DNA from: an uncultured bacterium | GTDB taxonomy: Bacteria; Patescibacteriota; Doudnabacteria; UBA920 | DNA: 64,000 nt | Direction of reading: 5' to 3' | Assembly: GCA_963749445.1 (NCBI GenBank) | Contig: CAVVMJ010000007.1 | Location: 9,971-73,970, forward strand | Shown here: piece after piece, positions 1,069 through 48,692 of the stretch | Layout: the number at the start of each line of letters is the position of its first letter | Numbering within the stretch: position 1 is the stretch's first letter | Made by a program: the position numbers and the translations under genes | The notes under the pieces: model-generated | What the model saw: the letters and a program-made list of their open reading frames with translations, nothing else | Database searches by the model: none | What the model was told of the DNA's origin: nothing

Positions 1069-1797
1069 TTGAGCCGCAGACGTGCACGGCGTTTCCCGTG
1101 CGGGCACCTTAACAATCGAGAAAACCAAATGTTAAAACTAACGTCTGACCCGGTTCGGACCATGGGTCCGAACAATCACTCGGTTGTGATTGGCGTTACG
1201 ATTATCGGCGACAGAAGAACGCCGGTGGTGAACGCAGACGTGCTCCTAAAGCTGGACTCACGAGATTGGGGCACACGAAAGACAAACCGTAATGGCCAAA
1301 TCGAACCGACGGAAGTGACTGCCATCCCCGATGGCAGTTTCAATGGCAACGGCAAACTGACGGTGGAGGCAATCCGCGTCGGCGCACCGGGGGATATGGA
1401 TCGCAAGATTATTGACATCCCAATGCCTCAACCCAAACCCGAACCCGCGGCAGTGGAAAGCATTGCCGTGACCAACGCGACTGAAGGCATTGTCTTGTGC
1501 TCCGGTTTCAACGGAACGCTCGAGATCGCCTTAGGGTTTGAGCAGGGAAAGAAGTCTCGCCCTGTCAGACTGAAAGTTTCGGCCGACCACAGGGTAGATT
1601 TTGCCAACGATAAAACGGGCACGCCTTTAGGCGCGAACGTAAAGTCGTGCGCGGCAACTACTTCGGCAGACGGAGTGCTCCGTCTGCGCGTCAACTTCCT
1701 GGCCTGCGGTCGGGACGAAGTCGAGATCAAAGTATCGGTCCCGAACTCGTCCAAAACTGCTACCGCCAAACTCAAATACAAAATGTTCGAAACTTAG
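1069..1797 (+). CDS. hypothetical protein, first gene of the GC-rich island (true start probably ATG 1129 or 1162)
   Basis: 242-aa ORF at about 60% GC against AT-rich flanks. No recognisable domain. The first codon of the ORF is TTG. Confidence 0.45.
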   Translation: MSRRRARRFPCGHLNNRENQMLKLTSDPVRTMGPNNHSVVIGVTIIGDRRTPVVNADVLLKLDSRDWGTRKTNRNGQIEPTEVTAIPDGSFNGNGKLTVEAIRVGAPGDMDRKIIDIPMPQPKPEPAAVESIAVTNATEGIVLCSGFNGTLEIALGFEQGKKSRPVRLKVSADHRVDFANDKTGTPLGANVKSCAATTSADGVLRLRVNFLACGRDEVEIKVSVPNSSKTATAKLKYKMFET

Positions 1798-1810
1798 GAG
1801 AGATAGACTG

Positions 1811-2788
1811 ATGACTCGTCACACACCCACATCCGCTGCACCGCCGCCGGCACCACCCGTGGCAACCGCACCGGCACCCCTCGCACCCGCAGTCATCCCG
1901 GCACAGGCACCCCTCGCACCCGCCACAATTCCGATCCCGGGAGGACACCACCTTAGCGACAAAACTTTGGTGACACTCGACATCCTCGTTGGAATCATCA
2001 CCGCTCTGTTCGGCCACGAAATCGGCCGCCAAGCGGGAAAGTGGTTCCAGGGAGCCAAACGCGGCTTGCAACAGATCGGTACGCCCGGGACAGCAACCGG
2101 GGTCACCATCTCAGGCAACGCACCCGCTCACATCGACCCCACCATCCATAGCGCCCTCCTAGGCATTGGACCGTGGGACGAAGCCGCCACTGGCATGACG
2201 CTGGGTGCTGCTTTCCGGCGGGCATTTCAACGCTTGTTGGAAGCAACCGGCACGCCAATGGAAGCGCCCATCCGCGCCGCGCTTGCCCAGCTGGAACAGA
2301 CTGTCGGCTTCATCGCCAACAAGCTCAACCAGCACCAGCGCGACTTCCTCCGCGAAGTCGTCGGCAAGCTCAAGACGGCTGAACTCCAGAACCTCTTCTG
2401 GCAGGACTTGGTCCTCGCCAGCAAGGACGAAACCGGTTTCATAAACTTTATGAAGGCAATGGGGATCGTCCACGAGCCGAACGAACTCACCCAGGAACTC
2501 GCGATTGCTATTGCCTATGGTTTCGAGCAGGCGAATGTGATCCGGGTCCAAATGGTGACCACGCTCACAGTTCGCTACGACGCCCGTTCCGACGCTGCCA
2601 GACAGCGCTGGTTCACCGCACATGGGCAACTCGCTCAAGGGCAGCCCGTTCAACAAAACGCGACGCCGTTCTGGCGCCGCCGCACGATATGGCTCGTCAT
2701 TGGACTGGCCATTCTGGCAGTGGCTCTATTTCTAGGCCTGCCCCACATCTACCTCAACCTTCGAAATTGGGAATGGAGTTGGAAATGA
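1811..2788 (+). CDS. hypothetical Pro/Ala-rich protein with C-terminal transmembrane anchor
   Basis: GGAG 8 nt upstream of the ATG. N-terminal PAPP/APLAP repeats and a C-terminal hydrophobic helix (IWLVIGLAILAVALFLGL). Confidence 0.55.
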   Translation: MTRHTPTSAAPPPAPPVATAPAPLAPAVIPAQAPLAPATIPIPGGHHLSDKTLVTLDILVGIITALFGHEIGRQAGKWFQGAKRGLQQIGTPGTATGVTISGNAPAHIDPTIHSALLGIGPWDEAATGMTLGAAFRRAFQRLLEATGTPMEAPIRAALAQLEQTVGFIANKLNQHQRDFLREVVGKLKTAELQNLFWQDLVLASKDETGFINFMKAMGIVHEPNELTQELAIAIAYGFEQANVIRVQMVTTLTVRYDARSDAARQRWFTAHGQLAQGQPVQQNATPFWRRRTIWLVIGLAILAVALFLGLPHIYLNLRNWEWSWK

Positions 2789-4197
2789 CGAATCTAGGAA
2801 GAATCGGAAGGTCGATCGGCACAATGGTGTCCGGTCTGGAAGCGAGGATTTTGGGCTGGATTAGCGCTCATGTCTCGCTAACGCCGCGCGCCTTCGGCAC
2901 GTGGCTTGACGAACACAATTTCATCCGGCTGGAAAACGGCGCGCCTGTCACGGACTACGCCGGTTTCTTCCGCTGGACACGCAACTCGCTCCTGTCCCTG
3001 ATGGCACTGACTTTATTGCTCGAAGCCTACACCATAGTCATCGGGACATTCAACAACACCCCGCTCGGCCTCGGCATAAGCTTAGGTTTCGGTGTGGCAG
3101 TGTTCGGCATCGCGTCGGTGGTCTGGATTTGGAGGACCATCGGCCGCGTCAACGAAGGCTTGGCCTGGATTTTCACTCTGGCCACTGCCACCCTTGCCCT
3201 AATTGGCTTAGGGACTCCGACTTACCAGTACTACGCCGCGGGGAACCTCGCCAAACTTTCGGCAAAAGATATCCAAAATCTGATCGCGGCAGGCATTCCG
3301 CGAATCTGGGCTATGGCGGGCTTTTGCCTGCTCAGCCTGATCGTTCTTCCGCTTACCTGGATGACCACTCTGGGGCCCGCCCTGCTGTCCCTGGCTTTCG
3401 CCAAGACGGCAGAAGGTCTGGAAACGGCGTGGACAGAAATCCGGAAAATATTCTCGCACGATAGGGAAGTAGCGGAAGCCGCTGCGGAAAACCTCCGCAA
3501 GCGGACAGAAACACAGACCGGCCTGCTCATGCTCACATGGGCGATCCTGGCGCTGTTTACTCTCTCTATTATTCTCTCGTCCACGGTCTGGGGGCCTTTC
3601 GGCGGCTTGGTCATCGGTATGACCGCAATCGTGCCGGTATGGATACGACGGTGGAATATGTTCTTGGGAACTTTCTTAACCAAGGCACTCTACGGCGTAG
3701 CCACAGGAGGGCTGATCTTTATCTGCTTCCTGTACGGCCTTTCACTCTCGGCCTTGATGCTGATTCCCGACCAAATTTCGCTCAACGCACTGCTAGTAAT
3801 CAAGTGGGCCAGCTTCCTAATCGGTCTCGCTTCGGCAGTTGGAGTGTTGTTTACCTCCACCACGGCCAGCAAACAGAACGAACTGGAAGCCGGCATGGGG
3901 GAAATTCAGCCCTACACCAGAAAGGTCACGGGTTTCGGGACTGATGGGCAGCCGATTTTTGAAGCTGTTCACCCCAAACCGACGTCCTTCGCCTGGGTCA
4001 AGCCCACGGTCTTCGGTGCTGTTGTCATCGCTCTGGTTGCCTATGTGCACTACAACGGCAACCCGCTTTCCGGCACCAGCCCGCTCAAGCTGGTCGCTTA
4101 CACAATGGTTGTCGGCTTGATCCTTATTCTCTTTGGGATCTTTTCCGGCGGCAAGACGCAAGCCACCCCTACACAGGAGGTGCGCCATGACCACTAG
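2785..4197 (+). CDS. hypothetical polytopic membrane protein (at least 10 predicted TM helices)
   Basis: ATGA start/stop overlap with the upstream gene and GGAG upstream. Long hydrophobic segments throughout. The longer track ORF from 2689 would overlap the previous gene by 100 nt. Confidence 0.5.
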   Translation: MTNLGRIGRSIGTMVSGLEARILGWISAHVSLTPRAFGTWLDEHNFIRLENGAPVTDYAGFFRWTRNSLLSLMALTLLLEAYTIVIGTFNNTPLGLGISLGFGVAVFGIASVVWIWRTIGRVNEGLAWIFTLATATLALIGLGTPTYQYYAAGNLAKLSAKDIQNLIAAGIPRIWAMAGFCLLSLIVLPLTWMTTLGPALLSLAFAKTAEGLETAWTEIRKIFSHDREVAEAAAENLRKRTETQTGLLMLTWAILALFTLSIILSSTVWGPFGGLVIGMTAIVPVWIRRWNMFLGTFLTKALYGVATGGLIFICFLYGLSLSALMLIPDQISLNALLVIKWASFLIGLASAVGVLFTSTTASKQNELEAGMGEIQPYTRKVTGFGTDGQPIFEAVHPKPTSFAWVKPTVFGAVVIALVAYVHYNGNPLSGTSPLKLVAYTMVVGLILILFGIFSGGKTQATPTQEVRHDH

Positions 4198-4771
4198 GAA
4201 AAAGTGCATCGTCATCGGCACTTTAATCGTCGGCGCAGCAGCCGCTGTGCTCCTCGGCTATTACGTAGGCATTGGCAAGTACGCGCCCAGCGAACAGGCG
4301 GCCTACAACCGCCTTCACGCGGCGAACAACTGGGAGTTTGAGGGGAAAACAAGCGATGTTGAAGACAAGCAAGTTCCCCTCGCCGACAAGGTTGCTCAAG
4401 TCAACGTCCTAGCCGTGCAAAAACGCACTCTGGACGCGCAAATCGGCCACCCGGAGCTGACCAACTGCCGGACGCAACCCGGCAAGGACAAGGACGGCAA
4501 GCCAATACTGGTGTCCGAGCCGTGCCCCGGCGGCGTCTCCGCGGCAATCTACAGGGGCAAAGAGGCCGTCATAACGGTCCAGCTCCTAACTTACAGCAAC
4601 GACGAACTCCCGCTCAATGTCGCACCGACCCTCGTCGGCGACGAGCAACTCGGTGGGACAGCAGTACCCCTGGGCAACAACCGGTTCCGCGTGTCGGGAC
4701 TGGTGTATGACCAGGAAAAAATCGCCGGCGGATACAAGATTCGCGTTACGCCGGAAGGAGGAGGAAACTAA
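4185..4771 (+). CDS. hypothetical membrane-anchored protein (N-terminal TM, extracytoplasmic domain)
   Basis: GGAGG upstream. The ATG overlaps the upstream stop by 11 nt. MTTRKKCIVIGTLIVGAAAAVLLGYYV signal-anchor. Confidence 0.5.
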
Positions 4772-5060: not shown

Positions 5061-5765
5061 TTAATTAGTTGTCTGGGTTGTAGTGCCCCGCTGTAAAATG
5101 TCGGAGGTCGTTAAGGTGGAGGTAATAATCGTAACAATGGAGTAAGCCAAAATTACCACTACCAAACCGACAATCGCGTTAATCAAAGCTTTTTTGCCTT
5201 TTTCCGACTGCTCCTCATTGCCCGCGGACGTAATGTACCAAAACCCGCCGACAATTAACGCGACCACCGCTATCAATCCGGAAAGAATCAATAAATACTT
5301 TATAACGACAAAAATCAAATCCACCAAGGTTCCCGCGCCTGCCGGGCTGCCGGCAGTATAAGTATTTGCCGGTACGCAAAAGCCGTTGATTTGCACCAGT
5401 CGGCTGTCGCCGCAAGGGCCACTCACCGTGGAAGGGATGGTTGGATTTAAGTTCACTCCTCCGCTATTTTGATACGCAGTACAAACCGGATCGTTCGGGT
5501 AGCTGTTGCAACAAGCTAACCCGGTTAAGCCCGAAGAGGCGCAGTCAACTTGCTTTGGCCCGACAATTCCGCCGGCAACGCAGGCACTTCCTGAATAAGT
5601 GCATCCCACTGTATTTGCGCACTGGATCGGATCAGCAATACCGGTACAATTATCGGCTTTAGCCAACAAAGGCCCACATGCCAAAAAACTAAAGGCCAAA
5701 GCAAAAACTGCAAAAAACACAAGTCCTGTCAGTTTATCAAATTGCAATTTGCTATTTTTTTTCAT
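5061..5765 (-). CDS. secreted Cys-rich surface protein with C-terminal VirB2/TrbC-like two-helix pilin module (paralog 1)
   Basis: Signal peptide and 16 Cys in the ectodomain. C-terminal motif IVGGFWYITSAGNEEQSEKGKKALINAIVGLVVVILAYSIV is shared with five neighbouring ORFs. Confidence 0.6.
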   Translation of the reverse strand: MKKNSKLQFDKLTGLVFFAVFALAFSFLACGPLLAKADNCTGIADPIQCANTVGCTYSGSACVAGGIVGPKQVDCASSGLTGLACCNSYPNDPVCTAYQNSGGVNLNPTIPSTVSGPCGDSRLVQINGFCVPANTYTAGSPAGAGTLVDLIFVVIKYLLILSGLIAVVALIVGGFWYITSAGNEEQSEKGKKALINAIVGLVVVILAYSIVTIITSTLTTSDILQRGTTTQTTN

Positions 5766-5774
5766 CGCGAAAAT

Positions 5775-6173
5775 TTAAACCCCGAGCCCGCCGGTAATGG
5801 TATTTTCAATGACCGTAATAATTGTATAAGCCAAAATAATAATCACAATGCCGATAATGGCATTGATTAAAGTTTTTTTGCCTTTTTCCGACTGCTCCTC
5901 GTTGCCGGACGCGGTAATGTAATAGTACCCGCCGATAATAATGAACAGCACGGCAATGGCGCCGGCAAACAGCAGCATCAGCTTAATGACATCATAAATC
6001 AAATGCGGCAAATCCGGCTCCTGGGACAGCCCGCCGATGCCGAACAAATCCCTTAAACCGCCTATGCCGGTCAGCCCCTGGCCGACCGCGCTGGTCTGGG
6101 CAAAAACCATAGCCGGCAAAAATAGCAAAGCGGAAGATATCCAGGCAAATATTTTTTTGACTGTTTGTTTCAT
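5775..6173 (-). CDS. VirB2/TrbC-like pilin-family protein (paralog 2, minimal form)
   Basis: Signal peptide followed by IIGGYYYITASGNEEQSEKGKKTLINAIIGIVIIILAYTII. Confidence 0.6.
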   Translation of the reverse strand: MKQTVKKIFAWISSALLFLPAMVFAQTSAVGQGLTGIGGLRDLFGIGGLSQEPDLPHLIYDVIKLMLLFAGAIAVLFIIIGGYYYITASGNEEQSEKGKKTLINAIIGIVIIILAYTIITVIENTITGGLGV

Positions 6174-6214: not shown

Positions 6215-6392
6215 TCAGAATGTCGGAATGTCGAATTAATCGGAGGGGTCATTTCCAAAATTTTTCCAATTTGTTATTAACCGATTAATTTGTTCAGAAA
6301 CTAAGACCAATCTTTATTGCCTGTATACGTCCAACTACCCGACCTCCGATATTCTGATTTATCCGATTATTCCGACTTCTGATTCCAAACTC
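6215..6392. repeat. MITE-like intergenic repeat module with about 17-bp terminal inverted repeats (AATCAGAATGTCGGAAT / ATTCCGACTTCTGATT)
   Basis: The internal 150 bp is homologous to 7947-8030 plus 8345-8470. Related fragments (GATTTATCCGA, ATTCCGAC) also occur at 930-990. Confidence 0.45.
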
Positions 6393-6548: not shown

Positions 6549-6941
6549 TTAGCTGGATGACTTGGAAACCAAACCGGCCACCACGTTAACGATTACGTAG
6601 GACAAAAGAATAATGACAATACCGATAATGGCGTTAATGGCCGTGTTCTTGCCTTTTTCCGCGGTTTCCTCATTGCCGGCGGAGGTAATGTACCAGAAGC
6701 CGCCAATGATTAAGAACAACACGGCAATACCAAAGGCGATCCCTAGGAGCCAATTGATGATATTTTTAATCAACGCGTTAGCATCGGTAGTGCCGCAGTT
6801 TAATCCGGTTCCGGAGCAGTTAGGAGCGGTCAGCTGCGCCTGTCCAAAATGCAATGGGACAAACACAAAAATCGCCACCAACACCAGCTCAGCGACCACT
6901 AACCAATTGATTTTCTTGATTATTTGTTTCAAGCTGTTCAC
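6549..6941 (-). CDS. VirB2/TrbC-like pilin-family protein (paralog 3)
   Basis: Signal peptide, CSGTGLNCG ectodomain, then IIGGFWYITSAGNEETAEKGKNTAINAIIGIVIILLSYVIV. Confidence 0.6.
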   Translation of the reverse strand: MNSLKQIIKKINWLVVAELVLVAIFVFVPLHFGQAQLTAPNCSGTGLNCGTTDANALIKNIINWLLGIAFGIAVLFLIIGGFWYITSAGNEETAEKGKNTAINAIIGIVIILLSYVIVNVVAGLVSKSSS

Positions 6942-7061
6942 CCCCTCTCGTTTCCCTTTCCCTCTCCCTCGGGGAGAGGGCAGGGTGAGGGTTAATTTGC
7001 TGACATTATTATACTACGATTCCTAATTTTTGGCCATCTCTATCTTTTTGGCACACGGTTG

Positions 7062-7946
7062 TCATCTCGGGCTCGGCCCAGGCGTAGGATAGGTTAAATT
7101 CTTATTGGTGGCTTGGCCGCAAACAAAAGTTTGCACCTCCTGCCCGGGCTGTATGGGTTTCTGGGAAGCCATGGCCACGGCCCAGCCGCTTGCGTTTTGC
7201 GTATAGTTTGATTGCATATAATCCGCGCCGTCAACTTTTACGGTAAAAGAGATAGGACTTACATCGCCACATATCATCGCAATCTGTGCCAATAAATCTC
7301 TTTCGCCAGTAGAAATTGTGGAATTCACTAACAGGCCGGGATTTTTGGGCGTAATGACAATATTGTCCCCCAAATAATTTTTATTGGTGCTCCTAGCATT
7401 ACTGACATCCTGTAAACTGATGCCCGCGAACATCGGGTTGGAATAAGCATTGCCTCCTTGCGTACCCGCGACCGCCGGATTGGTGTTGGTATTAGCCGAC
7501 GGATTAGTTACTGCCGGGGTATTGCCATTGCCGGTACTGCCCCCGGTCAACCCGCTGGTTAGCAAATTAACCGTGATGCGGACTATGGCATAAGCCATAA
7601 TAATTACGACCAAACCGATAATCGCGCTGGTAATGGCCTTGCGGCCTTTTTCGGATTGCTCCTCGTTGCCCGCGGCCGTCAGGTACCAAAAACCGCCCAA
7701 AATTATGAACACTACGGCCACCAAGGCGGCAAATTCCAGCAATAACTGGATAACATTGCCCACGGCCTGCTGGGGCGTACATAGTTTGGGGAGGCCTTCA
7801 ATGGTATTTACCGGTTTGCCGTTAACGGTAATTTGAAACTGGCCAAAAAACTTGTTGCAATCAAATTGCGCCGACGCCGGCATGGCCAACAGCCAGCTGA
7901 AAAGGATTATCACCAGAAAAAATTGAAGCTTATGCGTTTTCTTCAT
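7062..7946 (-). CDS. VirB2/TrbC-like pilin-family protein with 170-aa C-terminal extension (paralog 4)
   Basis: Signal peptide. The conserved module ILGGFWYLTAAGNEEQSEKGRKAITSAIIGLVVIIMAYAIV is in the N-terminal half, followed by a Gly/Asn/Thr-rich linker and a C-terminal domain. Confidence 0.55.
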   Translation of the reverse strand: MKKTHKLQFFLVIILFSWLLAMPASAQFDCNKFFGQFQITVNGKPVNTIEGLPKLCTPQQAVGNVIQLLLEFAALVAVVFIILGGFWYLTAAGNEEQSEKGRKAITSAIIGLVVIIMAYAIVRITVNLLTSGLTGGSTGNGNTPAVTNPSANTNTNPAVAGTQGGNAYSNPMFAGISLQDVSNARSTNKNYLGDNIVITPKNPGLLVNSTISTGERDLLAQIAMICGDVSPISFTVKVDGADYMQSNYTQNASGWAVAMASQKPIQPGQEVQTFVCGQATNKNLTYPTPGPSPR

Positions 7947-7965
7947 AATTTTTCGGAAAATCGGA

Positions 7966-8307
7966 TTAATCGGAATTATCGGATCTGAAATTCTTCCAAT
8001 TGGTTATTAGTCGATTAATTTGCTTGGATACTATTTTATAGTGCTTGATTAGTGCTTCGCAGGTTTCGGGTTTAATATTCGGGAAACCAATGAGTTTAAT
8101 TTGTCTTAGATGGGTTATAACTTCATCCGAAGATCCCAACGCAATCCGCAAGTAACGCTTGAATTCTTTTTCCGAATTTCGTTTGGCAAAACCTTCGGTA
8201 ATTTGCGCCGGAACTCCTTTTGCCGCGCCCGTTAACTGGTCTTTTGTCCGAAACTCATTTTTTGGCAACAAATCTGCTAACCGGTAAATCGGCCTAATCA
8301 ACTTCAT
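7966..8307 (-). CDS. four-helix-bundle protein (23S rRNA IVS protein family)
   Basis: The sequence ...GAAKGVPAQITEGFAKRNSEKEFKRYLRIALGSSDEVITHLRQ... matches the four-helix-bundle family. The gene sits inside copy 2 of the repeat module. Confidence 0.55.
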   Translation of the reverse strand: MKLIRPIYRLADLLPKNEFRTKDQLTGAAKGVPAQITEGFAKRNSEKEFKRYLRIALGSSDEVITHLRQIKLIGFPNIKPETCEALIKHYKIVSKQINRLITNWKNFRSDNSD

Positions 8308-8394
8308 TGACCTTCTGATAAACCTCTAAATCCTCAACATCCTTTATCATAATTAAAAAATTAAGACCGGTTTTTATTGCCTATATCCATCCAA

Positions 8395-9978
8395 CTATCC
8401 GACCTCCGATTTATCCGACATTCCGACATTCCGACATTCCGACATTCCGACATTCCGATTTATCCGAATCATACTCGTACTCTGGCTGACGTTTTGGATT
8501 TGCGTCTGCAAAATATATTGGACAATGGCAATGATGCTAAAGGACAGCAAAGCAATGGCTAAACCCAAAATGGCCCAGGTGATGGTCTTGCGCGCGGCCG
8601 TGACCGCCTCTTCGTTGCCCTGGGACATGACGTAGCGGAAGCCACCGATGACTATAAAAGCCACGGACCACAAAGCAATGACGCCCAAAAAGGCGCGCAT
8701 TATCAACAGCAAAGTCGCAGTCAAAGAATCCACGGGCAGGGGGTTATATAAACAATTGTTGGCATCGGGACCGGTACAATTAGCGGTGGAAGGAGTGCCG
8801 GCGGCAGAACATGTCCCTCCCGTGGCGGCTGAACATATCTGCCCGGAACTGCAAGTCCCCTGCTGCCCGGGACCTCCGGTACAAGAAGCACCAGGCGCGA
8901 CAGCCGCGGTCGGACTTACAGTAATATTAAAAGTAGTCGGTCCAACCCCATTTAACGCTGTGGTTCCGTCAGCGGCCACCGGAGTCGCGACAATTGAATT
9001 AACGCCGCTAATATTAAAACCGGAGTTTGCGTCCAAGGTAAAATTTTGGCTCCATTGTTTTGAACTGTCAAGTTTTACATCTTGATTACCCGCGTGCACC
9101 AATAAAATGCCGCCACTGGGCATATTGGTGGCAGAAATTGTTATGGTAGTTCCGGGCGCATAAGTACTATTGGCCGCAGGCGGCGATAAAACAACCGTCG
9201 GCGCGTTACCACTTGCGCCTGTGGCCTGAGTTAAAGTATAAGTTTGATCATAAATTCCCTTGCCGCTACTATCAGTCAGGACAAATCTTAACTTGTTATC
9301 CCCATTGCTAATAAATCCATTTGTGGCATTTACCGCTATTTGGTTGCCGCCTGAGTATATTGCAACAAAGTGATTATTATCGTTGACATAAATGTTTCCC
9401 TGCGCACCGGGCGGAAAATCTGTATAAGTAATTTTTAAGGTATCGCCAATTTTAGCGGTAGGCGGTGAAACTGTAAAGTTAAACCCCTCTCCTAAAGGAT
9501 TATTAGAAACATTTAGCTGTTTTCCCCAATTTTTTGTATCTCCCAAGTCACCCAAACTTGAATGAACATCCAAATAGTAAGGAAAAATGTAATCTGACCC
9601 TGACTTGGTAACATCACTCCAACGGGAAAAATTTGATAAATTAAAAGGGCAGTCAATATTAACATTGTTAGGAACAGGCGGGCTGACCTGGCACCTGGCC
9701 AAATACCAAGGGCTACCACTGATAGGGGCAATAAAATCAAACTCCATGATATTATTGGCACTACAGCCGTTTGTATTAACTATGGTATTAAATTTTGCCG
9801 AATCGCCTTTATAAATTCTGGTTGGAACTGCCTCCATAGAGGTAATTTGCACCTGGCAAATTCCTGCGGCTATTGCAGATTTTATGAATCCACGCCCAAA
9901 AACCCCGGCCAGCATCAATAAAATTATGACGCTGCTTTTTAGTGCGCTTAATATTTTATTGTACTTGTTCTGCGTCAT
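8395..9978 (-). CDS. large secreted surface protein with C-terminal VirB2/TrbC-like pilin module (paralog 5). The 3' end reads through the octamer repeat
   Basis: Signal peptide, about 400-aa beta-rich ectodomain, Cys/Gly-rich linker, then FIVIGGFRYVMSQGNEEAVTAARKTITWAILGLAIALLSFSII. The last 30 or so aa are encoded by the repeat module. Confidence 0.55.
   Translation of the reverse strand: MTQNKYNKILSALKSSVIILLMLAGVFGRGFIKSAIAAGICQVQITSMEAVPTRIYKGDSAKFNTIVNTNGCSANNIMEFDFIAPISGSPWYLARCQVSPPVPNNVNIDCPFNLSNFSRWSDVTKSGSDYIFPYYLDVHSSLGDLGDTKNWGKQLNVSNNPLGEGFNFTVSPPTAKIGDTLKITYTDFPPGAQGNIYVNDNNHFVAIYSGGNQIAVNATNGFISNGDNKLRFVLTDSSGKGIYDQTYTLTQATGASGNAPTVVLSPPAANSTYAPGTTITISATNMPSGGILLVHAGNQDVKLDSSKQWSQNFTLDANSGFNISGVNSIVATPVAADGTTALNGVGPTTFNITVSPTAAVAPGASCTGGPGQQGTCSSGQICSAATGGTCSAAGTPSTANCTGPDANNCLYNPLPVDSLTATLLLIMRAFLGVIALWSVAFIVIGGFRYVMSQGNEEAVTAARKTITWAILGLAIALLSFSIIAIVQYILQTQIQNVSQSTSMIRINRNVGMSECRNVGMSDKSEVG
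8415..8454. repeat. octanucleotide microsatellite (CCGACATT)x5
   Basis: Five perfect tandem units. Translated on the minus strand they form the C-terminal tail (RNVGMSECRNVGMS) of ORF 8395..9978. Confidence 0.9.
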
Positions 9979-9990
9979 ACTTTTTGATTT

Positions 9991-10485
9991 TTACTTCCCT
10001 GCCGGCGCGATGCCTTCTTCCACGTTATAGGAATTTGGGACGCAGGTATAACTGCTCGGGTTGGTCAAAGTAATGTAAGTCCACGGACTGGCAAAATCAA
10101 TTTTGCATTTGGACATTAATAGAATATTAACTGCGGTATTGACGAACATATACGCGGCCACGACCACAAAAAATCCTATGAATACCTGGGTTAACGCTCC
10201 CTTGTGTTTGGTAATGTCCTCCTCGTTGCCGCTGCTCGCCACCAGCCAAAAAGAATGTTCAACAATCTTGTAAACCGCGTAAAGCCCGGCCATGGCTATC
10301 AGCCAGTTGGTCACCCGCGCCACCCCGTAAAAAGCGTCCAAAACTCCGCAGGGATGATTATCCGTCGGCCCGCTGCCGCCGCAGGGAACTAGTCCAGCGG
10401 CATGGACGAAAAATGGCATAGAAAAAGCTATTGTTATTGTTAAGATTACCGCAACTAAAAGCCTTTTTTGTTTCAAGATAATCAT
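9991..10485 (-). CDS. VirB2/TrbC-like pilin-family protein (paralog 6, divergent)
   Basis: Signal peptide, CGGSGPTDNHPCG, then LVASSGNEEDITKHKGALTQVFIGFFVVVAAYMFV. Confidence 0.5.
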   Translation of the reverse strand: MIILKQKRLLVAVILTITIAFSMPFFVHAAGLVPCGGSGPTDNHPCGVLDAFYGVARVTNWLIAMAGLYAVYKIVEHSFWLVASSGNEEDITKHKGALTQVFIGFFVVVAAYMFVNTAVNILLMSKCKIDFASPWTYITLTNPSSYTCVPNSYNVEEGIAPAGK

Positions 10486-10540: not shown

Positions 10541-10622
10541 TTGAAATTGCGAGGGCGTGCATCCGACCGAAGCAATCCCCAAAAAATAACCGGATTGCTC
10601 CGGCCACCCTCGCAATTTCATA
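10541..10622. repeat. palindromic repeat element, copy A (GAAATTGCGAGGG...CCCTCGCAATTTC)
   Basis: Terminal inverted arms plus an inner GAAGCAATCC/GGATTGCT pair. Three longer copies lie at 28142, 43438 and 48535. Confidence 0.6.
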
Positions 10623-10727: not shown

Positions 10728-12024
10728 TCACTGCCCCGCAGTGATTGCGGCCGCTTGTTGTTCGGCTTGACTAAGCGAATCCTGCGCGCTCAACCCGTTT
10801 AAAATTACGTTATCAATCGCCTTGCCGAAAATGTTGTCCATCTTGGCCTGGTCCGGGCGGTAAAAAGATTTAGCGGTAAGGTTGGCGTTGGCAAACACGC
10901 CGATGTCCGGGTCCGGAATTTGCAGCTCAATAAGGTCGCGGCGCGAAGACGGCACTTTGTTTTGCGCGTAATATTGGTCCAGGCTGTCCTTGCTCGTTAA
11001 AAATTTTACCAAATCCCAGGCTGCGGCCAGTTCTTACTCTGTTTGCTCACCACCTCTCCCCAGTAGTTGGCAAAATTCACGGATGGGTTATTCAAATCCG
11101 GCTGCGGCACGCCGGCCACGTCAAAATTCAAATTGGGAGATTTTTGTAAGATGGTGGCGCGACTATAGGAATAGCTGTACAAAAACGCGGCGCGGCCGTT
11201 GGCAAAAGCGTCAATGGAATAATCGCTTTGGGCGTTCCAGTTGTAATTAGGGCTGGAAGGATTGGCAAAAGATGTGTAAAAACTCAAAGCACTGACTCCG
11301 GGATTGGTAAAATTGCCGTTTTTCTGAACCGGGTCGGCAAAAGTCGGCTGCATGCCGGTATAAGGCATGGTGCCCTGCTGCAGCATCATCAAATACAAAA
11401 TATCCACCGCGCGATTGACATTGGCGTTAGTACCTAATGCTACGCCGCTTTGCAAAAAATAACCGTGGCTGTCCTGCCGCTTGATTTTCTGCACATCCGT
11501 TGCCAGCTCGCTCCAGGTCTTCGGCGGCGTGGCAATCCCCGCGCTGCCCATCATATCCTTGTTATAATACAGCGCCAAAGAATCCACGGACATGGCCGCG
11601 CCGTAAATTTTTCCTGGCTGGTAAAATCGTTGACCACCGCGTCCACAAAGGTATCCTTAAAATCCTTCAAAGTAAAAATGGAAGCCGGCGAAGGCGTGGC
11701 TTTGTCCAAATACTGCGGCAGCCAGGCGTTGTTGATGGAAAAAATATCCGGCCCGTTGCCTGCGGCCAAAGCGTTCAGCAAATCCTGCTGGTAAGTGTTA
11801 ATGTCTTTTTTGGTGTAGACGATGGTAATATTGGGATTTTTTTGGCGGTAAGCGTCGAGCAGCGGCTGCAGGCTTTGGCTGTCCATAAACGGATTCCACA
11901 TGGTCAGGGTAATATTCCGCTGAACCGTAGTTGTCCCTCCCCCGCCGCATCCCGCCGCAAGCAAACTAAGGCCGATGGCGGATAAAAGCAATTTTGGTTT
12001 GAAAAATTTTCTTTTTGGTTTCAT
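10728..12024 (-). pseudogene. ABC transporter substrate-binding lipoprotein (sugar-binding family) disrupted by two frameshifts
   Basis: Three consecutive minus-strand ORFs (11551..12024, 11006..11593, 10728..11012) translate to one SBP with a lipobox LAAGC. One frameshift is in the AAAAATTT run near 11588 and one is near 11010. Confidence 0.55.
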
Positions 12025-28141: not shown

Positions 28142-28272
28142 AGTGGTGAAACTCCCGCAACTCTAAAATGAATTTGCGAGGAGCCAGGGCTTTATCTGGC
28201 GACGAAGCAATCCCAAAATTTGAATGGGATTGCCGCGCCCCTCTCTGCATCGGGGCTCGCAAATTCTGTTAT
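28142..28272. repeat. palindromic repeat element, copy B
   Basis: GAATTTGCGAGGAGCC...GAAGCAATCCC-loop-GGGATTGCCGCGCCCC...GCTCGCAAATTC. Confidence 0.65.
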
Positions 28273-43402: not shown

Positions 43403-43437
43403 TACAAAATTCAAATTGCAAAACTTAAAACAAGCTG

Positions 43438-43560
43438 AAATTGCGAGCCCCGATGCAGAGGGGCGCGGCAATCCCATAAAATTGACGGGATTGCTTCGCC
43501 CGCCTTCGCTGAAGCTTCGGCGGATAAATCGGATGCACTCCTCGCAATTTCTGATGGAAA
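43438..43560. repeat. palindromic repeat element, copy C (inverted orientation)
   Basis: GAAATTGCGAGCCCCGATGCAGAGGGGCGCGGCAATCCC-loop-GGGATTGCTTCGCC...CTCGCAATTTC. Confidence 0.65.
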
Positions 43561-47100: not shown

Positions 47101-47730
47101 ATGGAAATAAAAACAAAATCTGGATTTACCTTAATAGAATTATTGGTGGTCATAGCAATTATCGGCCTGCTGGCATCGGTGGTGTTGGTGGCGTTAAATA
47201 ATGCCAGAAACAAGGCAAAATCGGCACTAGCCTTGACTAATCAAAGACAACTGCAAAAAGCAGTGGAAATGTACAATCTTGATGTGGGCTTTTACCCGCC
47301 AGACGTAAACAGAGGATGGGATCCGGGTATTGCCAAGCCTCTTCCTTCAAATAAGGATCTGGGATTTGATTGTAATATTGACGCAACTGCCTGCACCTGC
47401 CCCAGCACTGATTTTCCCCCATGCTCCATCACACCATTTCCTTTACCGGCAGACTGGATGAATCAAGTAAAAAATAACTGGAAAGGTCCTTATGTGGCTG
47501 TCTGGCCAAATACGGCACCCTGGGGGGGCAAGTATGACTTCAATAATTGGAATGTACCTACGGTACGATATGGCTGCACCGTGCCGGCCGGCATTTACAT
47601 AGGCACCCAAAGAAACTACGATGATAGTAATCCTATTCCCCAAGATCAGGAACAATGGTTTTTGGATCAAAAAATGGACGCGGATAATTGCCTAAACGGC
47701 GAGGTTCAACTTATGCTTATTAAATATTAG
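47101..47730 (+). CDS. prepilin-type N-terminal cleavage/methylation domain pilin (type IV pilin/pseudopilin)
   Basis: SGFTLIELLVVIAIIGLLASVVLVAL class III signal. Cys-containing C-terminal domain. Confidence 0.7.
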   Translation: MEIKTKSGFTLIELLVVIAIIGLLASVVLVALNNARNKAKSALALTNQRQLQKAVEMYNLDVGFYPPDVNRGWDPGIAKPLPSNKDLGFDCNIDATACTCPSTDFPPCSITPFPLPADWMNQVKNNWKGPYVAVWPNTAPWGGKYDFNNWNVPTVRYGCTVPAGIYIGTQRNYDDSNPIPQDQEQWFLDQKMDADNCLNGEVQLMLIKY

Positions 47731-48534: not shown

Positions 48535-48658
48535 GATGAAATTGCGAGGAGCCGAGGGCTTTTTATCTGGCGACGAAGCAATCCCGATACTTAACTGGGA
48601 TTGCCGCGCCCCTCGCTGCATCGGGGCTCGCAATTTCCGGGCATTTGGGATTTTGCAA
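48535..48658. repeat. palindromic repeat element, copy D
   Basis: GAAATTGCGAGGAGCCGAGGGC...GAAGCAATCCC-loop-GGGATTGCCGCGCCCCTCGCTGCATCGGGGCTCGCAATTTCC. Confidence 0.65.
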
Positions 48659-48692
48659 TTAAAGACTGACTCTACCTATCAAGGAACATTAG

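Follow-up and report, generated by a model that had tools for sequence, protein, structure and literature searches.

The DNA analysed here, hereafter the window, is a stretch of 64,000 nucleotides from an uncultured bacterium of the Doudnabacteria lineage (contig CAVVMJ010000007.1). On its minus strand, between positions 5061 and 10485, lies an array of six paralogous open reading frames (ORFs), all of which score above the gathering threshold of PF18895, the T4SS_pilin family of VirB2/TrbC-like proteins (28.3–53.8 bits against 26.6; E values from 2e-14 to 1.9e-6). The genes are named g1 to g6 in the order of transcription, corresponding to paralogs 6 to 1 of a preliminary description of this DNA. 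That description dealt with positions 7062–9978, a span that holds two of the six ORFs and one small inserted gene. The paralogs share a conserved module and are divergent, with identities of 27–44% over the full length and 30–65% within the module. A profile built from the six modules detects no seventh copy anywhere in the 64-kb window. The array probably encodes VirB2/TrbC-like hairpin pilins on the chromosome of a bacterium of the Patescibacteria, or candidate phyla radiation (CPR).

The six products differ in what is attached to the module. g4 (paralog 3; 6549–6941; 130 residues, or 127 if translation starts at the TTG codon at 6932; PF18895 E = 2e-14) and g5 (paralog 2; 5775–6173; 132 residues, no cysteine; E = 1.2e-13) are minimal pilins. 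g1 (paralog 6; 9991–10485; 164 residues; E = 5.4e-7) consists of a signal peptide, a short N-terminal segment with a cysteine pair, the module (residues 48–126) and a 38-residue C-terminal tail with two cysteines; a C-tailed type also occupies position 1 in relatives. In g6 (paralog 1; 5061–5765; 234 residues), the module (144–222) follows a cysteine-rich N-terminal ectodomain of ~110 residues, with 10 cysteines in the mature part. The longest product, g2 (paralog 5; 8395–9978; 527 residues), has a signal-like N-terminus (9862–9978), a large ectodomain (residues 40–415; 8734–9861), the module (416–494; 8497–8733) and a 33-residue tail. g3 (paralog 4; 7062–7946; 294 residues) begins with a signal peptide (residues 1–26) and an N-terminal segment containing C30 and C56, followed by the module (55–133; 7548–7784), a linker rich in G, S, T, N and P (134–164; 7455–7547) and a C-terminal domain (165–294; 7065–7454). 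Counted as residues before and after the module, the layouts are N47/C38 in g1, N415/C33 in g2, N54/C161 in g3 and N143/C12 in g6, and extra folded or large domains are present in three of the six members. The preliminary description placed the module of paralog 4 in the N-terminal half of the protein, as we find, and took this order to be the reverse of that in the other five. The latter does not hold: paralogs 2 and 3 have no variable domain, the tail of paralog 6 is also C-terminal, and a sizeable N-terminal domain is found in paralogs 1 and 5 only.

The module contains two strongly hydrophobic stretches (Kyte–Doolittle maxima 2.2–2.9) flanking a short charged loop of the form xGNEE..K/R. 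AlphaFold2 models these stretches as paired helices, residues 58–90 and 95–132 in the hairpin of paralog 4 and 418–451 and 456–497 in paralog 5. By hydropathy, every paralog also has a basic and then hydrophobic N-terminus that closes in a small-residue motif, for example PASA followed by QF in paralog 4. A module outside the membrane would have undone the earlier idea of a common anchor; the two hydrophobic stretches and the signal-like segment instead support it, and with it the view that one conserved hairpin of membrane type bears very different, outward-facing domains. The distribution of residues around the hairpin is uneven. Cysteine makes up 2.46% of the flanking segments across the family versus 0.19% of the module, and cysteine pairs occur in both N- and C-terminal segments; the inter-helix loop carries 2–3 lysines or arginines, the flanks 0–2. 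In relatives (their loci and proteins are given here as L and P numbers), domains of known extracytoplasmic type flank the module on either side: PG_binding_1, which binds peptidoglycan, lies N-terminal to it in P0037, P0044, P0046, P0047 and P0056, and the bacterial Ig-like domain Big_5 follows it in P0085.

We propose that a Sec-type signal peptide would be cleaved, with helix 1 crossing the membrane inward and helix 2 outward. A cleaved signal peptide with an even number of membrane helices behind it would leave the two hairpin ends on the outer face of the cell, or outside the filament if the hairpins polymerise like VirB2/TraA pilins. With both termini outside, a domain could be displayed at either side of the module. 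This topology is supported by the cysteine pairs in the two flanks, by the lysines and arginines of the loop, by the extracytoplasmic domains on either side in relatives and by the multi-hairpin proteins described below. In the solved F/pED208 pilus the lumen is lined by the inter-helix loop and both termini are outside (PMC5018250), an arrangement that would accommodate terminal fusions. The hairpin can also be concatenated. The top-scoring members of the family in a library of 1.8 billion proteins are 'poly-pilins' with 6–8 or more tandem hairpins behind one signal peptide: P0093 (820 residues), P0094 (552), P0146 (1775) and P0166 (1147). In total, the family comprises ~67,000 cluster representatives at E<=1e-3.

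The C-terminal domain of g3 is a conserved family, as judged by sequence profiles. A search with the C-extension as a single sequence gives no match, and homologues appeared only with a profile. In the resulting 19-sequence alignment, a signal peptide and the Cys30...Cys56 segment precede a highly conserved module; a low-complexity linker of G, S, T, N and P then leads to a domain of ~120 residues in which Cys226 and Cys276 are invariant. AlphaFold2, run on this alignment, predicts two helices and eight strands for the domain with a predicted local distance difference test score (pLDDT) above 90, and a disordered linker (132–163, pLDDT <50). A Foldseek comparison with the PDB returns weak matches to Ig-like or carbohydrate-binding-module-like sandwiches (best E = 0.011), and an Ig-like sandwich is a plausible fold class for the model. 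In such a structure, g3 would tether a disulfide-containing Ig-like sandwich to the C-terminus of the hairpin through a flexible linker of ~30 residues.

The window holds probable indel errors or pseudogenes, namely a 1-bp difference from L001 in the inserted gene and a solute-binding protein gene split in three, and in such DNA the C-extension of paralog 4 might itself be an assembly or gene-calling artefact. The architecture recurs in at least 19 homologues with both cysteines invariant, the domain is modelled with pLDDT above 90, and the g3 protein is identical in the independent assembly L001. We therefore ruled out that read-through or a frameshift has joined a short pilin to unrelated or non-coding sequence, and regard an artefact of any such kind as very improbable.

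The g2 ectodomain, which the preliminary description called a repetitive, beta-rich domain of 400 residues, is roughly that: it spans ~376 residues and is all-beta in a low-confidence model (pLDDT 46.8), and the repetition amounts to two weakly related tandem segments, 161–255 and 256–362 (25% identity, E = 1e-4). Residues 363–415 form a stalk rich in Cys, Gly, Ser and Thr, with six cysteines. Thus built, g2 would carry three beta domains and a cysteine-rich stalk on the N-terminus of its hairpin. A single-sequence search with the ectodomain finds itself and one 48%-identical protein only. An iterated profile over the fetched loci extends the ectodomain family to 15 loci, in which it nearly always belongs to the second gene of the array, the exceptions being L002, where it belongs to a lone gene beside ftsZ, and L020, where it belongs to the last pilin gene. 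An exact-sequence look-up of paralog 5 returned no contig on record, and a PHROGs scan of the two extended pilins, the inserted gene and the orphan ORFs of the window gave no match. The L002 protein (P0002; L002:3859-5283) is the only close paralog 5 homologue outside the fetched arrays; behind its module, four NTTGNPPS repeats form the C-terminus, and a four-helix-bundle (IVP/bAvd) gene lies 1.5 kb away. A likeness in layout between the orphan neighbours of P0002 and the plus-strand ORFs at 1069–4771 of the window was considered and rejected, as four BLASTP comparisons showed no similarity.

How these architectures arose can be judged from relatives. A scan of species-representative genomes yielded 77 loci, mostly labelled Candidatus Doudnabacteria or Patescibacteria, and a survey with a hidden Markov model of the module found 370 module-bearing ORFs in them, with a median of five pilin genes per locus. 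Most of these ORFs (245) are short; 65 have an N-extension only (>90 residues), 29 a C-extension only (>80 residues, up to 1,533), 21 a C-terminal tail of 31–80 residues and 8 both extensions, and the remaining 2, at a locus edge, were left unclassified. The extreme of the paralog 4 polarity is seen in the Peribacteria/Peregrinibacteria-like loci L064, L066, L067, L071, L072 and L075, whose module proteins of 1,485–1,682 residues have the module at ~75–160 and then a C-extension of 1,330–1,530 residues.

Within this set, the six-gene pattern of the window is matched gene for gene, with the C-extension at position 3, in L004, L006, L010 and L015; L003, L007–L009, L012 and L013 have the same pattern except for a short pilin at position 3. 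The positional orthologues of g6 in loci with the six-gene layout bear N-extensions of 92–220 residues. By a profile of 19 sequences, the g3 C-domain is found at position 3 in 11 loci, among them L004, L006, L010, L014, L015, L017, L019, L022, L024 and L026, invariably C-terminal to the module and never free-standing. The modules tell the same story: in nine other loci, the gene that best matches a given window module nearly always holds the corresponding position (47–90% identity), and in the closest genomes, L004 and L006, positional identity reaches 62–90% (70–90% for g1–g4, where the gene is present). Extra domains are only 26–34% identical between positional orthologues; for modules the figure is 62–90%, and for the neighbouring GalU and ComM about 80%. 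Upstream synteny is conserved as well, with genes for an exonuclease, DksA/TraR, LspA, ComM, GalU and a solute-binding protein; GalU and ComM are roughly 70–82% identical to those of relatives. These comparisons indicate that the array, with its architectures, is older than the split between these species and has been inherited vertically.

The preliminary description had proposed the contrary, a recombination-active locus in which shuffling makes new surface proteins around a single anchor, and had pointed to orthologous loci in related genomes as the place to look. Such a locus would still be exchanging variable domains, much as antigenic-variation cassettes do. Six paralogs with a common module and varied architectures would fit that proposal, as would the C-extension at position 3, which is present in some species and absent in others. 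Those loci speak for an inherited six-gene layout instead. Gene order and architectures are the same in other species, best matches are positional, and the longest identical DNA run between any two window paralogs is 27 nt; repeats inside the array consist of the diverged module (64–70% DNA identity) and the ends of an inserted cassette only. Nor is this a domain-order swap: in sequence, the C-extension of paralog 4 resembles neither the N-domain of paralog 5 nor that of paralog 1, and its profile matches no N-terminal part in 80 loci. Paralog 4 is, moreover, identical in an independent assembly. Positional orthology, recurring architectures and the lack of long identical runs therefore leave no sign of ongoing shuffling.

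An inserted cassette lies between g2 and g3 (7953–8450), bounded by inverted, 8-bp-periodic TCGGA repeats at 7953–7985 and 8403–8450. Its gene (minus strand; ORF 7966–8307, true start near 8349) encodes a four-helix-bundle protein of the 23S_rRNA_IVP/TIGR02436 type (PF05635, 62.9 bits against a threshold of 33.8, E = 3.6e-17; TIGR02436, 69.9 against 24 bits). It is frameshifted here by one extra G at ~8315 relative to L001, in which the ORF is intact (127 residues); the extra base is due either to a genuine pseudogene variant or to an indel in the assembly. That the cassette gene is an insertion follows from L004 and L006, in which the orthologues of g2 and g3 overlap by 4 nt and have nothing inserted between them. 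In the window, the insertion swapped the last few codons of g2 for 23 repeat-encoded residues, so that, compared with the C-termini of orthologues, the last ~23 of the 33 tail residues are encoded by the CGGAATGT repeats of the cassette. A deleted remnant of a second copy lies between g4 and g5 (6215–6357); it retains the repeats at its two ends and the final 22 codons of the four-helix-bundle gene (tblastn, 6239–6304, 77% identity to residues 92–113 of the protein). Closely related cassettes with similar repeats are present between g3 and g4 in L008 (9263–9679) and L013 (9354–9731), and L009 has a repeat footprint in the g3–g4 gap (~9671–9720). No transposase is present. The cassette looks mobile and recurs in these arrays, which is the one sign of mobility in the array, and it does not move pilin domains.

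Two insertions of a mobile cassette inside the array, and the membership of its product in a family that includes the Avd proteins of diversity-generating retroelements (DGRs; PF22296 is listed for the L002 homologue), could be taken in favour of active recombination. We considered and rejected a DGR, as neither a reverse transcriptase nor a template/variable repeat pair was found. More broadly, the scanned ORFs of the window yielded no reverse transcriptase, integrase or transposase/recombinase domain, and repeats of the template/variable type were not found in the window. Together with the positional orthology and a g3 C-domain that is never N-terminal or free-standing, these results largely refute the recombination proposal, which we now consider improbable. 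What looks like a 'domain swap' is an architecture that was inherited and is old, and it does not point to active shuffling.

Among the inherited members, g4 is the most conserved, its module being 78–90% identical to those of positional orthologues. The g3–g4 intergenic region (6942–7036, minus strand) contains a promoter-like TGGCCA-17-TATAAT (-10 element at 7008–7013), a hairpin and a GAGAGGGGGTGAACAGCTTG ribosome-binding and start region. The TATAAT-like box and the GAGAGGGGGTGAACAGCTTG start region are conserved across related loci, suggesting a promoter; scans for promoter and terminator consensus sequences showed no enrichment over shuffled sequences, and only the site upstream of g4 has cross-species support. 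The CCCTC/GAGGG hairpin, at ~6952–6991 between the TATAAT and the g4 start, has similar counterparts at the same place in L003 and L009 and may be a regulatory or stabilising element of a 5' untranslated region. Because g4 is the most conserved member and is preceded by this conserved box and start region, we propose that this short protein would supply the bulk, or major, subunit. The extended and fast-evolving g2, g3 and g6 would be minor or decorating subunits that contact a host cell or the wall.

Our interpretation, which we hold with moderate confidence, is that the locus is an inherited array of six hairpin pilins whose extended members would be adhesin-type subunits of a pilus or surface array. 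The minimal members resemble VirB2/TrbC/TraA pilins (PF04956) in having a signal peptide and, within ~100 mature residues, two hydrophobic helices with a short charged loop between them. Canonical conjugative pilins differ in being small and free of extra domains, and the host here is a monoderm. Paralogs 1 and 2 score at the cut-off (40.6 and 40.4 bits against 40) of NCBIfam NF045849, the Mbov_0395 family of a Mycoplasma integrative and conjugative element (ICE). A further likeness is to the larger transmembrane proteins Mbov_0396/MMCAP2_0566/pLS20_p028, where a weak match covers an N-terminal hairpin that precedes a long C-terminal part, the polarity of paralog 4; these matches are far below the cut-offs (E from 3e-4 to 4e-3), and there is no ICE context here. 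Polymerisation into a pilus and a role in adhesion are inferred, as is a possible connection with type IV secretion, the last from homology and from published work on other Patescibacteria.

Several results weigh against this interpretation. Only paralog 3 passes the PF04956 threshold (28.9 against 27.9 bits); paralogs 1, 2 and 4 stay below it at 15.9–19.3 bits, and paralogs 5 and 6 have no match. Searched against all PDB sequences, the module profile recovers no solved VirB2, TraA or TrbC pilin, only a chance match to OSTC (E = 0.76). No VirB4, VirD4, VirB6 or VirB3/PrgI was detected among the window ORFs scanned, in the DNA flanking L004 or L031, or among ten large ORFs taken from the surroundings of other arrays; these searches, which reached up to 10 kb from related arrays, found no type IV secretion system (T4SS) genes and no T4SS ATPase, only housekeeping genes such as FtsH, SMC and GyrA. 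A folded domain of 130 residues per subunit might be ill-suited to a tightly packed pilus wall, and the extended members may therefore be rare subunits or may not polymerise. The model of the g2 ectodomain is of low confidence, the N-out/C-out topology is predicted from hydropathy, charge and domain markers, and, given the weak structural matches, the label 'adhesin' for the g3 C-domain is a guess from its fold class.

Since the searches found no T4SS genes near the arrays, either here or in relatives, the main rival is a non-polymerising membrane anchor: six independent surface proteins, each held by a two-helix hairpin, with no pilus and no type IV secretion function. Solitary family members among housekeeping genes, as in L031, would fit such an anchor, peptidoglycan-binding domains in some relatives would suit tethering to the wall, and the poly-hairpin proteins resemble polytopic membrane proteins. 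The family is, however, homologous to TrbC/VirB2 and to the pilin-like conjugal transfer protein of the Mycoplasma ICE, and a conserved array of several genes, one of them minimal and very well conserved, looks like a set of major and minor pilins. In addition, a pilin gene is near virB4 in 1135 of 1948 other Patescibacteria assemblies, according to the passages searched of a published survey (PMC12102498); by the same figures this location is not obligatory, and no virB4 was found here. We regard the static anchor as unlikely, at a level that still deserves attention, and favour the pilin array.

Other features of the window are recorded here. The solute-binding protein gene upstream of the array (10728–12024, minus strand) is split into ORFs of 157, 195 and 94 residues. 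Its SBP_bac_8 counterpart is intact (432–440 residues) in L003, L004, L008, L010, L013 and L015, and the split reflects either a pseudogene or two assembly indels. Downstream of the array, at 1069–4771 on the plus strand, lie four convergent ORFs of 242, 325, 502 and 212 residues with no Pfam, NCBIfam or PHROG match; the 502-residue product is strongly hydrophobic. The G+C content is 57.7% at 2001–4000, compared with 44–51% around it. In relatives, the DNA downstream of the array holds no counterpart of these ORFs but other orphan genes, followed by FtsH; the four ORFs are possibly an acquired island. A hairpin repeat resembling repetitive extragenic palindromes, CGAAGCAATCCC...GGGATTGC..., is found at 10568–10605, 28191–28266, 43414–43501 and 48562–48660; 76 nt are 91% identical in two copies, and g1, the first pilin gene, has one of the four copies immediately upstream. 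At 47101–47730 (plus strand), a 209-residue protein bears the N-terminal methylation motif PF07963, which marks it as a type IV pilin or pseudopilin; it has no relation to the VirB2-like array. An Rfam scan of the window returned transfer RNAs only.

The array can be placed among known systems. In the passages searched of the published survey, 383 Patescibacteria assemblies carry 441 arrays of 2–11 divergent VirB2-like pilins each (PMC12102498), and a six-pilin array is described as essential in Southlakia epibionticum ML1 (PMC10633639; PMC12857230). The locus resembles these arrays in its tandem, divergent PF18895/PF04956 hairpin pilins, its CPR genome and its six genes, the number found in Southlakia. 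The published definition as given in those passages (2–11 pilins of low identity, in tandem or with one non-pilin gene between; PMC12102498) describes it. It differs from the Southlakia T4SS cluster in that no recognisable T4SS cluster lies around or beside it. The locus thus belongs to a known kind of array, of which the domain-bearing members are a modest variant; the searched passages on Patescibacteria arrays make no mention of domain extensions, of the logic of two outward-facing ends or of positional conservation of architecture. Several divergent VirB2 paralogs in tandem are also found in Bartonella and Anaplasma, for which antigenic variation has been proposed (cited in the passages searched of PMC12102498). 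The paralogs here differ in being old and positionally orthologous, and in varying by whole domains rather than surface loops.

Two-domain adhesins offer an analogy. The chaperone-usher adhesin FimH consists of a lectin domain and a pilin domain, and minor pilins of type IV pili are comparable. As in these proteins, a polymerisation or anchor module is fused to a binding domain and occurs beside plain subunits; the folds and assembly pathways are unrelated, and no homology is claimed. A broader proposal is that CPR VirB2-type pilins are a modular display scaffold, with binding domains on either end, and that the six-gene array would build a heteropolymeric host-specificity pilus. The concatenated hairpins of the poly-pilins and the C-extensions of ~1,500 residues in Peribacteria-like loci can be cited for it, and we put it forward tentatively, as a possibility that we doubt more than we believe. 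If it were true, the host specificity of these epibionts would lie with the extended subunits.

Patescibacteria attach to other microbes and live on them, and in the only member that is genetically tractable the VirB2-like pilin array is essential for this way of life. If the ectodomain-bearing pilins join such a structure, they would be natural candidates for the elements that contact the host. The fast divergence of the ectodomains relative to the module (26–34% versus 62–90% identity) is the pattern expected of host-specificity determinants, and the rule that both ends of the hairpin face outward would account for the wide range of architectures in this large family.

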